Source: Clostridium thermobutyricum (GTDB taxonomy: Bacteria > Bacillota > Clostridia > Ch29). From it: a DNA stretch of 64,000 nt. The position numbers were made by a program, and so were the translations under genes. This document shows positions 52,421 through 55,664 of this stretch, one piece after another; within the stretch, counting starts at the first letter, position 1; each line of letters begins with the position of its first letter. Under the pieces are notes generated by a model that saw nothing but the letters and a program-made list of their open reading frames with translations, did no database searches and had not been told where the DNA came from. The stretch spans positions 13,998 through 77,997 of the forward strand of contig JAENYX010000010.1 in assembly GCA_016841565.1 (NCBI GenBank), read 5' to 3'.

Positions 52421-53758
52421 TCAGGCTTGTTTTGCTTTTCGTTTTTCTGCTATGATTTCGGCCTTTATGAGCCGGATTCTTTCCACCAGAGGTCTCTTGG
52501 CAGGACATACAAAGGAACAGCTCCCGCATTCTATACAGTCTACTGCGTTATACTCTTCCGCTTCCTGTAGCATGCCCTTCTGCGAAAAGCCCTCCAACTT
52601 GGTCGGCAAGAGGCCTATGGGACATGCATTAACACATTTTGCGCATTTTATACAAGGCAGCTCGGGTGAAAGCCCAAGGTCCTTTTCCTTTAGAATCAGC
52701 ATACCGGAAGTTCCTTTTATAACGGGTACCTCGGTGGTATATTGGGCAATACCCATCATTGGGCCTCCATGGATAATCTTCCCGACACCCTCTTCCAGCC
52801 CGCCGCACTGATCTATTACATCTGAAAAGGCTGTACCTATTCGGACTATCAGGTTCTGAGGCTTATTTATGCCGCTGCCGGTAATGGTTACTATCCTCTC
52901 CACCAGTGGCATACCGGTATCTATTGCACAAGCCAGCGCAGCAGCAGTACCCACGTTGTTAACAATAACGCCGCTGTCCATGGGTAGTCCTCCCGAGGGA
53001 ACTTCCCTGCCTGTGCAGGCCTTGATAAGCTGCTTCTCTGCACCCTGCGGGTATTTCGCCTTAAGAACAACAACCTGAACGCTTTTCTCTCCCCGGGCGG
53101 CTTCTGTTACCGCTTTGATGGCATCAGGCTTGTTCTCTTCTATTGCAATGTACCCTTTGTCCACATTAACGGCTTTCATCATGGCCTTGATGCCGTTAAC
53201 CACATCCTGGGGTCTCTCGACCATCAGCCTGTGGTCTGAAGTCAGATACGGTTCGCACTCTGCTCCGTTTAGAATAACCGTATCTATTTTCTTATCTGGA
53301 GGCGGGGAGAATTTGACCTGTGTTGGGAAAGCTGCTCCTCCCATACCCACAAGACCGGCTTCTCTCATTATGTTTTTTATTTGGTCAGCCTCCAGGTCTT
53401 CCAATTCCCCTTTGGGCTTGACGCTTTCATCAATGGTGTCAAGACCATCGGACTCTACCACTACCGATAGCACCATTCCTCCTCCGGGATGAGGTCTTTT
53501 CTCTATGGCAGCAACCTTGCCCGATACGCTGGAATGCACAGGTGCTCCGACAAATCCTTTTGGTTCCCCAACCTTTTGCCCCAGCTTTACCTCTTCCCCT
53601 ACCTTAACAACTGCTTCACACGGCGCACCAATATGCTGCTGCAGCGGTATTACAGCCACGTCCGGAGCTTTCGCTTTTGCTAAAGGCATATGCTCGGTTG
53701 CATGTTTATTGTGAGGAGGATGTGCACCTCCTTTAAAGGTTAATGGTTTAACTGGCAT
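52421..53758 (-). CDS. rnfC: Rnf complex subunit C
   Basis: QHIGAP, GLVGMGGAAFPT, NGAECEPYLTSD, YPQGAEK and two 4Fe-4S motifs; ATG 53758. Confidence 0.96.
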   Translation of the reverse strand: MPVKPLTFKGGAHPPHNKHATEHMPLAKAKAPDVAVIPLQQHIGAPCEAVVKVGEEVKLGQKVGEPKGFVGAPVHSSVSGKVAAIEKRPHPGGGMVLSVVVESDGLDTIDESVKPKGELEDLEADQIKNIMREAGLVGMGGAAFPTQVKFSPPPDKKIDTVILNGAECEPYLTSDHRLMVERPQDVVNGIKAMMKAVNVDKGYIAIEENKPDAIKAVTEAARGEKSVQVVVLKAKYPQGAEKQLIKACTGREVPSGGLPMDSGVIVNNVGTAAALACAIDTGMPLVERIVTITGSGINKPQNLIVRIGTAFSDVIDQCGGLEEGVGKIIHGGPMMGIAQYTTEVPVIKGTSGMLILKEKDLGLSPELPCIKCAKCVNACPIGLLPTKLEGFSQKGMLQEAEEYNAVDCIECGSCSFVCPAKRPLVERIRLIKAEIIAEKRKAKQA

Positions 53759-53778
53759 TTGCTTCACTCCTTTAACAT

Positions 53779-53860
53779 AAAAAAATGTCGGTTCTTTAGT
53801 TCCAACTTGTCTATACTACCCGGTTAAAGCCAAGCTTCTCAGCCGGGGTAAATCTACAAA
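53779..53860 (-). ncRNA. Candidate Na+-sensing (DUF1646-type) riboswitch with terminator-like platform in the rnf leader
   Basis: RNA GUAGAUUUAC-CCCGG-CUGAG-AAGC-UUG-GCUU-UAA-CCGGG-UAGU, then GUUGG...CCGAC-A-U7 just before the rnfC SD; TATAAT at 53891-53896. Family match is from memory, not computed. Confidence 0.5.
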
Positions 53861-54071
53861 AAATATATATTATCCCGCATAACACACTTAATTATACTAC
53901 AATTAATTTGCAAATTAAACCCGATAATTTGTTCCAATGGAGAATAACTATCCGAAACTAACATATATGACACATTTTTACAACACATTTTGGAGCTGCT
54001 TTACTGCTTTTCCGGCGGCTGACAGGAGTTATCGAATGCTCTGATGAGACAACAGGAAAAACATTTAGTTA

Positions 54072-54100
54072 TTGACTTACGGTTTATTGTCTGTTATACT
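54072..54100 (+). promoter_or_regulatory. Sigma-A promoter of the selenoprotein-glutaredoxin operon
   Basis: TTGACT-17 bp-TATACT with extended TG. Confidence 0.75.
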
Positions 54101-54154
54101 TTAATTGCCCCATATAGGGGGGGCGGGTATATTGTAAAATAAGGAGGATTATGT

Positions 54155-54451
54155 ATGCAAATAAATATACAGGACGGTGCAAAGCAAGAGCTTAACAGAA
54201 TTTTAGACTCTAAAGGCGTCTCACAGAAATCCCTGCGTATATATACAGCAGGTGTGGGCTGAGGCGGTCCAACCTTTGCTATGGCTCTGGATGAGCCTGG
54301 AGAGAATGATATAACAAATGAATTAGAGGGATTTACTTTTATTATTGACAAGGATTTGGCCAGAAAGTACCCAAATTATAGTATTGTGTATCAAAACGGC
54401 CTTGTTTTCAAAGGCTTGCGTATATACGCAGAGGGAACATCAGGATGTTAG
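54155..54451 (+). CDS. HesB/IscA-like selenoprotein (UGA recoded as Sec at codon 36), 98 aa
   Basis: Absent from the ORF track. MQINIQDGAKQELNRILDSKGVSQKSLRIYTAGVG-U-GGPTFAMALDEPGEND...IIDKDLA...GTSGC; SD AAGGAGG; in-frame TGA at 54260-54262 at the conserved Cys position. Confidence 0.88.
54260..54297 (+). promoter_or_regulatory. Candidate bacterial SECIS element
   Basis: GGCTC-TGGAT-GAGCC hairpin at 54283-54297; loop starts 26 nt after UGA with G at its second position. Confidence 0.65.
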
Positions 54452-54461
54452 GAGGGATATT

Positions 54462-54686
54462 ATGAAAAATGTAACTGTCTATACCAGCGATACCTGCGGT
54501 TACTGCCAGATGCTCAAGGAATACTTAAAGGACAGAAAAATAACTTATACCGAAAAAAATATAAACACAGACGCCCAAGCGAGAAATGAACTGATAAGCA
54601 AGGGCTATATGGGAGTTCCTGTTGTTATAGTTGGAGATGAAACAATTGTTGGTTTTGACAAAGCAAAACTTGACCAAATACTTTAA
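54462..54686 (+). CDS. Glutaredoxin-like protein (NrdH/YruB type)
   Basis: VYTSDTCGYC, GVP and IVGFD motifs; true start ATG 54462 with SD GGAGG overlapping the upstream TAG. Confidence 0.9.
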   Translation: MKNVTVYTSDTCGYCQMLKEYLKDRKITYTEKNINTDAQARNELISKGYMGVPVVIVGDETIVGFDKAKLDQIL

Positions 54687-54693
54687 AATCACG

Positions 54694-54720
54694 AAAGCCG
54701 CTTCAGTCAAGCGGCTTTTT
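54694..54720. terminator. Bidirectional terminator
   Basis: AAAGCCGCTT-CAGTC-AAGCGGCTTTTT. Confidence 0.8.
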
Positions 54721-54739
54721 CATTATATCAATTAAGTTT

Positions 54740-55180
54740 TCAGTCCTGTAGCACCTCGATGCCGTCTCCCGGCTTTATTGTACCGCCTTGTACCACCTTT
54801 GCAAATATCCCCTCGGTGGGCATTATGCACGCTCCTACCTGTTTAAATACCTCGCATCCCAGGTGGCATTCCTTGCCAATCTGACTGATTTCCAAAACCG
54901 TCTCCCCCACCTTTATCCTTGTACCCACTCCTACGGTATGAAGCTTGATACCCTGGGTGGTAATATTCTCTGCGAATTTCCCGGTACACAGTCCCTCAAT
55001 ACCCAGAGCCTTCATCTTGTCTATGCTCTCCTGGGCAAGGATGCTGACCTGCCTGTGCCATTTACCTGCATGGGCATCCCCCTCCAGACCAAAATCCTTA
55101 ATTAAATTGACCTTTTCTATGGGTTTTTTAATTTGCCCTTTTTTCTCGCTTCTATTGACGGCAATTACTGTTCCCGTCAC
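54740..55180 (-). CDS. MOSC domain-containing protein
   Basis: GLEGDAHAG.WHRQVS.L, FAENI.T.G, QIGKECH..C and MP.EG.F motifs. Confidence 0.9.
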   Translation of the reverse strand: MTGTVIAVNRSEKKGQIKKPIEKVNLIKDFGLEGDAHAGKWHRQVSILAQESIDKMKALGIEGLCTGKFAENITTQGIKLHTVGVGTRIKVGETVLEISQIGKECHLGCEVFKQVGACIMPTEGIFAKVVQGGTIKPGDGIEVLQD

Positions 55181-55664
55181 TTTTGACTCCCCCTTTTAGA
55201 TAATGTCCCGACTTCCCGCCGCGTTTTTCTATTAATTCAATATCTCCGATAACCATTTCCTTATCTACCGCTTTGCACATATCATAAACCGTCAGTGCCG
55301 CCACCGCTACCGCCGTAAGGGCCTCCATCTCCACACCGGTCTTCCCCGATACGCTAACCTCGGCCTTTATCTCCACCGCCGTCAGCTCCCGGTTGATTTC
55401 AAGCTTCATATCAATACCGCTTATGCTCAAAGGATGACACATGGGGATTATGTTTGGCGTTTGCTTGGCCCCCATTATACCTCCCACCTGGGCAACTCCA
55501 AGCACATCCCCCTTTTTCATATCACCCTTTTCCACAAGCTCCAGCGTTCCAGGCTTCATATATACCCTTCCCCGGGCTACCGCCCTTCTGTCGGTAATGT
55601 CCTTGTCCCCGACATCGACCATCCTGGCACGGCCCTGGTCGTTCAAATGAGTCAACCCATCCAT
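55152..55664 (-). CDS. moaC: Cyclic pyranopterin monophosphate synthase
   Basis: LTH.....ARMVDV, IPMCHP, TGVEMEAL and YDMCKAVD motifs. Confidence 0.96.
   Translation of the reverse strand: MDGLTHLNDQGRARMVDVGDKDITDRRAVARGRVYMKPGTLELVEKGDMKKGDVLGVAQVGGIMGAKQTPNIIPMCHPLSISGIDMKLEINRELTAVEIKAEVSVSGKTGVEMEALTAVAVAALTVYDMCKAVDKEMVIGDIELIEKRGGKSGHYLKGGVKSDGNSNCRQ

Follow-up and report, generated by a model that had tools for sequence, protein, structure and literature searches.

A 64,000-nucleotide stretch of DNA from Clostridium thermobutyricum (hereafter the window) carries a two-gene operon in which a HesB/IscA-like gene, interrupted by a UGA codon, is followed by the gene for a small glutaredoxin. 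We conclude, with a probability of about 0.88, that the gene structure, decoding machinery, fold and partner of the operon at 54072-54723 are as described below and that UGA codon 36 is read as selenocysteine (Sec). The predicted insertion of Sec at this codon draws on six independent lines of evidence, namely conservation, selection, a selenocysteine insertion sequence (SECIS), machinery, genetic code and assembly. The gene is a divergent member of a selenoprotein family that has been known for roughly two decades, and its recognition is therefore mainly an annotation fix. The glutaredoxin partner and a candidate operator at the promoter are conserved clues to the function of this orphan family.

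A sequence-only reading of the same locus had described a strong promoter and Shine-Dalgarno sequence, a reading frame that continues through TGA 54260 and is family-like on both sides of it, a SECIS-like hairpin and a terminal Cys. All of these features were located in the sequence (see the table below), and independent genomes show the TGA at the same place together with the hairpin, the terminal Cys and the glutaredoxin. In what follows, G, L and C numbers denote genomes, loci and contigs, G000 being the genome of the window.

A probably recoded UGA codon in a HesB-like gene

The open reading frame (ORF) contains exactly one in-frame TGA. An orthologue is present in seven of ten genomes of the same family in the GTDB taxonomy, each with one TGA at the same codon, and two Logan metagenome contigs have TGA at this position as well. 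Within a class-wide sample of 401 genomes the family is carried by 52, and its 58 matches comprise 35 with one TGA and 23 without. Where the codon could be read, all 17 retained Sec-form loci had TGA and all four TGA-free loci had TGT (Cys); in assembling this set, one spurious match was discarded, and two loci had no match to the motif. Alignment with Cys homologues, which had been suggested earlier as a check, reveals that Sec and Cys alternate at the codon-36 column. A comparison of eight orthologues gave ratios of nonsynonymous to synonymous substitution (dN/dS) of 0.16 over codons 2-35 and 0.11 over codons 37-95, at a dS close to 2. Because purifying selection acts on both sides of the TGA, both halves of the gene appear to be translated.

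A standard ORF listing gives only 35-amino-acid (aa) and 56-aa pieces at this locus, and gene callers see the same two ORFs. Such a pattern would suit a nonsense pseudogene, that is, an IscA-like gene inactivated by TGA from which fragments or nothing would be made. However, we find this explanation barely credible, given that the TGA persists in orthologues whose synonymous sites are saturated and whose two halves are both under purifying selection, that a single TGA occupies this codon in 35 homologues across the class, that a covarying SECIS hairpin lies 3' of the TGA, and that the Sec machinery is complete. A reading as two separate genes was rejected because ATG 54281, the start of the 56-aa fragment, is not conserved and is replaced by Leu in L031 and L037. 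Nor is the TGA an assembly error, since it is carried independently by a contig of depth 68 and by a contig from a different study.

The hairpin downstream of the codon conforms to the published model of the bacterial SECIS (bSECIS). In that model the apical loop measures 3-9 nt and carries G in its first two positions, the upper stem has 4 bp or more, 16-37 nt separate the hairpin from the UGA, and the minimum free energy is -7.5 kcal/mol or lower (PMC13188914). The window hairpin agrees with the model throughout, lying 25 nt 3' of the UGA with a 5-bp upper stem, a 5-nt loop that has G at positions 2-3 and a predicted energy of -13.1 kcal/mol. The loop GG is invariant among 24 Sec forms, and compensatory double changes occur in three of the five core pairs (four of seven pairs tested). 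When two flanking pairs are included, 82% of cells are paired, compared with 18-49% for slid-pairing controls. The median hairpin energy is -10.0 kcal/mol for the 24 Sec forms versus -2.75 kcal/mol for the four Cys forms, from which the hairpin is absent. An Rfam scan of positions 53500-55200 (E values up to 10) returned no SECIS or other relevant family, only chance matches.

A second, smaller hairpin, UGGGCUG/CGGUCCA, encloses the UGA itself (window positions 54255-54271). Because its stem is built from the GGN and CCN codons of Gly and Pro, this hairpin may be a by-product of the conserved peptide G-U-GGP.

The components needed for Sec insertion are present in the genome, as the sequence-only reading had supposed. 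The genes selA (490.6 bits), selB (373 bits) and selD (392.9 bits) and a tRNA-Sec gene with anticodon TCA (selC) all score over their cut-offs and form one cluster, selD-selA-selB-tRNA-Sec, on contig C48 (22415-28585). SelD is itself of the Sec type, with an in-frame TGA in the active-site motif SSGUAAKIGP (L011:1396-2448, minus strand; G000 C48:27668-28585). The genome also has a second glutaredoxin gene (G000 C56:23872-24093, minus strand) with an in-frame TGA in its active-site sequence MEKVVVYTTKT-U-PHC, where the motif is UxxC. It reaches 68 bits against the Pfam Glutaredoxin model when U is counted as C, and it probably encodes a Sec-containing glutaredoxin, a known selenoprotein family.

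The possibility that UGA36 instead specifies Trp, Gly or Cys, whether because the code is altered or because of near-cognate read-through, was raised by homologues in protein libraries that carry W at this position. These W residues are TGA codons read with translation table 4. In the window's genome TGA is the stop codon of 273 of 1284 long ORFs (21%), and the genetic code is therefore standard. The codon alternates with Cys rather than with Trp or Gly, and both a SECIS and selABCD are present. We consider non-Sec decoding very improbable.

Most similar to the window protein among NCBIfam models are TIGR01911 (HesB_rel_seleno) and NF038090 (IscA_HesB_Se), the matches spanning residues 3-90 in each case when U is taken as C for hidden Markov model (HMM) scoring. 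HesB-like selenoproteins are known from Symbiobacterium and Deltaproteobacteria, and the earlier statement that they occur in Clostridia agrees with their listing in Alkaliphilus, Desulfitobacterium and others (PMC1794560). In Methanococcus maripaludis the family was 75Se-labelled, and its function has been called unclear (PMC11097638). The window protein resembles these proteins in its length of about 100 residues, its IscA fold, a Sec at the position of the first IscA Cys, a Cys at the extreme C terminus, a SECIS directly downstream of the Sec codon, and the alternation of Sec and Cys forms among relatives. Its UGGP motif fits the family signature UxGP (PMC13188914). Unlike other members, it comes from a group of uncultured Clostridia that have the gene in one operon with a glutaredoxin gene, and the palindrome at its promoter is an extended form.

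An AlphaFold model of the protein (pLDDT 87.7, pTM 0.78) matches the A-type carriers IscA (1x0g, 1s98 and 1r94) and SufA (2d2a) with TM scores of 0.67-0.77. Residues 96-98 are modelled with low confidence, and this C-terminal tail is taken as flexible. In agreement with the proposal that Sec replaces the first IscA Cys, residue 36 aligns with Cys35 of E. coli IscA and with the GGGCSG motif of HI1723. In other respects the protein departs from the A-type carriers IscA, SufA and ErpA. Its score against their Pfam family PF01521 (22.9) is below the gathering score of 26.3, Sec stands in place of Cys, and the gene lies outside any isc or suf operon. The canonical C-terminal C-x-C is also absent and is replaced by a single terminal Cys that is nearly invariant in the family. 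While the cluster ligands of E. coli IscA are C35, C99 and C101, the window protein has only U36 and C98.

Several observations weigh against reading this gene as a HesB-like selenoprotein gene. The window sequence was found in DNA metagenome runs only. Unlike those of curated HesB-like members, its HMM scores fall just under the curated cut-offs (58.9 versus 66.35 for TIGR01911, and 52.2 versus 85 for NF038090). However, because the same two models rank best for this protein and for all 24 aligned relatives, we take it for a divergent family member and not for an outsider. Close orthologues do not vary in the SECIS core, which in them overlies the conserved peptide ALDEP, and it is consequently only the more remote family members that supply the covariation. 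The synonymous positions of GCU, CUG and GAG in the core are frozen among close orthologues, while adjacent codons vary freely. Finally, the metagenome orthologue L028 (376-430; the same in L029) has a weakened stem. In these two loci the core reads GGUUC/GCGCC with a U-C mismatch and an energy of about -7 kcal/mol, and Glu is changed to Ala in ALDEP, such that L028 may be a less efficient or decaying Sec form.

Linkage to a glutaredoxin gene

The second gene of the operon encodes a glutaredoxin-like protein of the YruB/NrdH type. It scores 61.3 bits against the Pfam Glutaredoxin model (cut-off 22.9) and 85.6 against TIGR02196 (YruB; cut-off 88.55), and the orthologues that lie beside hesB-Sec genes are 67-82% identical to it. 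A glutaredoxin homologue is located within about 1.5 kb of the Sec form at 13 loci representing five GTDB families, and near none of the four Cys forms. The position of the linked gene varies. It can lie downstream of the Sec gene, with a membrane-protein gene in between (L044), or form a unit of its own on the upstream side (L050 and L051).

A functional partnership of this kind has a possible precedent in Alkaliphilus oremlandii, where a glutaredoxin (Grx) reduces the selenoprotein MsrA (Kim et al. 2011, as cited in PMC13188914). Our working model is that the window glutaredoxin, like its A. oremlandii counterpart, would be a small, dedicated reductant of an oxidised selenium centre. The two pairs differ in that the A. 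oremlandii pair comprises an MsrA substrate and a Sec-containing Grx, whereas here the partner is HesB-like and the glutaredoxin is a Cys form with CGYC.

The sequence-only reading had gone further, proposing that glutaredoxin translation depends on ribosomes finishing the Sec frame, and that failed Sec insertion would lower glutaredoxin output and make the operon selenium-responsive. The structural feature behind this proposal is real. The TAG stop overlaps the glutaredoxin ribosome-binding site (RBS) as TAGGAGG, only 10 nt separate the stop from the glutaredoxin ATG, and the overlap is kept in seven of the eight same-family orthologues whose 3' end is known. However, L037 has a TAA stop and about 20 nt before the glutaredoxin start, and the distances are 23 nt in L049 (a member of another family) and 46 nt in L053, each with a separate RBS. 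In G076 and G362 the glutaredoxin gene even forms a separate transcription unit upstream. Moreover, the glutaredoxin RBS (AGGAGG, spaced 6-7 nt from the start codon) is strong by itself. Structure predicted for the region is no more stable than in shuffled sequences (z = -0.6), and nothing suggests that it masks the RBS.

Dependence of glutaredoxin synthesis on Sec insertion is therefore unsupported as it was put forward, and we consider it improbable. Tight spacing of the two genes is real and may help matched synthesis, but the data neither demonstrate nor require obligatory coupling or the selenium-responsive glutaredoxin that would follow from it, even if some degree of coupling could occur. 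The linkage to glutaredoxin is more telling than the coupling.

A candidate operator and possible functions

Directly 3' of the -10 box lies a palindrome of C-tract, TATA and G-tract followed by GGTATAT, a pattern common to all ten glutaredoxin-linked orthologues. Distant HesB-like Sec genes that lack a glutaredoxin neighbour have a canonical ATACCC-N3-5-GGGTAT at or over the promoter. Across 28 loci, TACC-N3-11-GGTA is present in the 90-nt upstream interval of 15, versus 0.024 expected per interval from the rest of the loci sequence, although the loci are phylogenetically non-independent. These sites are very similar to the S. mitis cst operator ATATACCCTTATGGGGTATAT, which has been defined by experiment as a binding site of the persulfide sensor CstR (PMC8643695) and likewise is an AT-flanked C-tract/G-tract palindrome directly at the promoter. 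Sites at distant HesB-like Sec loci, such as AATACCCCTTATGGGTATAC in L058 and GTATACCCCATAGGGGTATAAT before the grx gene of L051, are near-identical to cst-type sites, whereas the window palindrome is longer and imperfect and carries the extra GGTATAT.

Distant relatives have the palindrome either in the spacer that separates the -35 from the -10 box or across the -10 box itself. Because the grx copy in G076 and G362 lies between the two boxes, the palindrome appears to act as DNA rather than as RNA. On the evidence of these sequences, a repressor of the CsoR/CstR family probably holds transcription off by binding there.

In G076 and G362 the grx and HesB-like Sec genes are about 1 kb apart, and each has its own CsoR/CstR-type palindrome. 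The two palindromes of L051 are GTATACCCCATAGGGGTATAAT and ATATACCATATAGGGGTATAGG, at 444-470 and 1472-1495, and the arrangement recurs in L050.

The regulatory part of this account has its own weak points. The window palindrome extends the canonical CsoR/CstR site and matches it imperfectly, the operon has no adjoining regulator gene, and both CsoR-family (PF02583) genes of the genome (C69:12290-12556 and C4:64619-64870) are of the copper type, with a C-H-C ligand pattern. No csoR, copA or copZ gene was found within about 1.5 kb of any hesB locus. Our literature search turned up no paper that connects CsoR or CstR to HesB-like selenoproteins. CsoR-family genes were present in all 13 genomes checked, at one to four per genome, and in several of these genomes a paralogue shows the C-x-C pattern known from CstR-like sensors, with Tyr where the copper-ligand His would be (PMC8643695).

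Similar sites exist elsewhere in the window's genome, before copA-copZ (TATACCCCATAAGGGTATAT) and before csoR (TACCCCATGAGGGTA). The copA-copZ operon (G000 C75:9786-12632) and an autoregulated csoR (C69:12245-12556) are each located behind TACCCCAT(A/G)AGGGTA, and together they constitute an ordinary copper-efflux regulon. The looser core pattern of the palindrome has 16 matches in the genome, and for this reason the core shared with the copA and csoR sites is no proof of a common regulator. The second CsoR-family gene (C-H-C; G000 C4:64619-64990, minus strand) is directly downstream of alr-mazE-mazF and behind the palindrome CTTCCGGTATATATACCGAAG. A search for a second palindrome of the window type produced a sole close look-alike at C85:104890, which was rejected as a chance match because it falls inside the coding region of a methyltransferase (NPPY).

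A CsoR/CstR-family repressor would keep the operon off until a signal appears, which could be reactive sulfur, selenium or Cu(I). During translation, SelB docked on the SECIS hairpin presumably delivers Sec-tRNA(Sec) to UGA36, and the product would carry a selenol (U36) together with a thiol (C98) in its flexible C-terminal tail. With less certainty, U36 and C98 could be a redox-active or ligand-binding chalcogen pair that forms a selenenylsulfide, carries a persulfide or perselenide, or binds Cu(I) or an Fe-S cluster. The glutaredoxin made alongside might reduce or unload this pair, and the close spacing of the genes might favour roughly matched synthesis of the two partners. These roles of U36/C98 and of the glutaredoxin, being read from residues and gene linkage, are much less certain than the Sec reading, and so is the regulator.

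We tentatively suggest that the HesB-like Sec protein and the dithiol glutaredoxin form a stress-induced module under a CsoR/CstR-type repressor, in which Sec36 and Cys98 would capture Cu(I), or else carry selenium or sulfane sulfur and reduce it, and would be recycled by the glutaredoxin. The suggestion is based on the glutaredoxin linkage in five families and on the separate operator copies of the grx and hesB units in G076 and G362.

A housekeeping role in Fe-S metabolism remains a serious rival for the function, though we hold it to be rather unlikely. Under such a scheme, the protein would be an A-type Fe-S carrier whose Sec aids cluster or iron handling, the glutaredoxin an Fe-S helper, and the palindrome a 5' mRNA hairpin or irrelevant. 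The gene is the only IscA/HesB-like gene found in the genome, it is predicted to have the IscA fold with Sec at a cluster-ligand position, and it is located between rnf genes and genes for molybdenum-cofactor synthesis, whose products are rich in Fe-S. However, the single terminal Cys is all that stands in for two of the three canonical cluster cysteines, only 52 of 401 genomes in the class sample carry the family, and the partner is a dithiol CGYC redoxin rather than a monothiol CGFS Fe-S glutaredoxin. The position of the palindrome between or over promoter boxes in distant relatives, and therefore its apparent action as DNA, does not fit an mRNA hairpin. In addition, an M. maripaludis disruption mutant had no reported Fe-S-related phenotype (PMC11097638). 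Whether stress module or carrier, the two conserved associations added here, a dedicated dithiol glutaredoxin and a CsoR/CstR-type promoter site, could help to assign a function to the family.

Operon layout and annotation

Features of the operon and their coordinates in the window
Feature	Position	Strand	Details
Two-gene operon (selenoprotein gene and glutaredoxin gene)	54072-54723	+	
Sigma-70-type promoter	54072-54100	+	-35 TTGACT (54072-54077), 17-nt spacer, extended -10 TGnTATACT (-10 hexamer 54095-54100)
Candidate repressor operator	54105-54133		TTGCCCCATATAGGGGGGGCGGGTATATT; directly 3' of -10; C-tract, TATA, G-tract, GGTATAT
RBS of selenoprotein gene	54141-54147	+	AAGGAGG, 7 nt 5' of ATG 54155; GGAGG conserved in orthologues
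HesB/IscA-like selenoprotein gene	54155-54451	+	98 codons, then TAG 54449-54451; motif GVG-U-GGP; C-terminal Cys98 (54446-54448)
UGA codon 36, read as Sec	54260-54262	+	Codon conservation; alignment to IscA Cys35
Bacterial SECIS hairpin	54274-54304	+	Upper stem GGCUC/GAGCC (54283-54287 with 54293-54297), loop UGGAU (54288-54292), lower stem 54274-54281 with 54298-54304
Cys98 codon TGT and stop TAG, overlapping glutaredoxin RBS AGGAGG(G)	54446-54456	+	TGT-TAGGAGGG
Glutaredoxin-like gene	54462-54686	+	74 codons; dithiol C12-G-Y-C15 (54495-54506); YruB/NrdH type
Intrinsic terminator	54694-54723		10-pair hairpin AAAGCCGCTTCAGTCAAGCGGCTTT (54694-54718), then T-run

The promoter matches the consensus hexamers at 10 of 12 positions, with TG preceding the -10, and both hexamers are conserved across all orthologues. 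The terminator that closes the operon also serves the convergent MOSC-moaC-moaA genes. These are encoded on the minus strand downstream, and upstream lies rnfC, also on the minus strand. The gene order, flanks included, is the same in all related loci.

The annotation side is routine, in that selenoprotein genes are still split or mistranslated in metagenome-derived genomes. As had been anticipated, gene callers truncate or miss this gene. Publicly, the window protein is stored only as its 56-aa C-terminal piece, and a word-based protein search returned two truncated 56-aa fragments only; the homologues came from an exhaustive HMMER search. One relative was called as separate proteins of 36 and 56 aa, and others were called with TGA as W. 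Many library homologues (P0005 and others; L027:1441-1740) have W at the Sec position and can be translated only with TGA as W. The W appears because metagenome gene callers chose genetic code 4 for short contigs, and this code-4 calling is a systematic artefact that hides selenoproteins.

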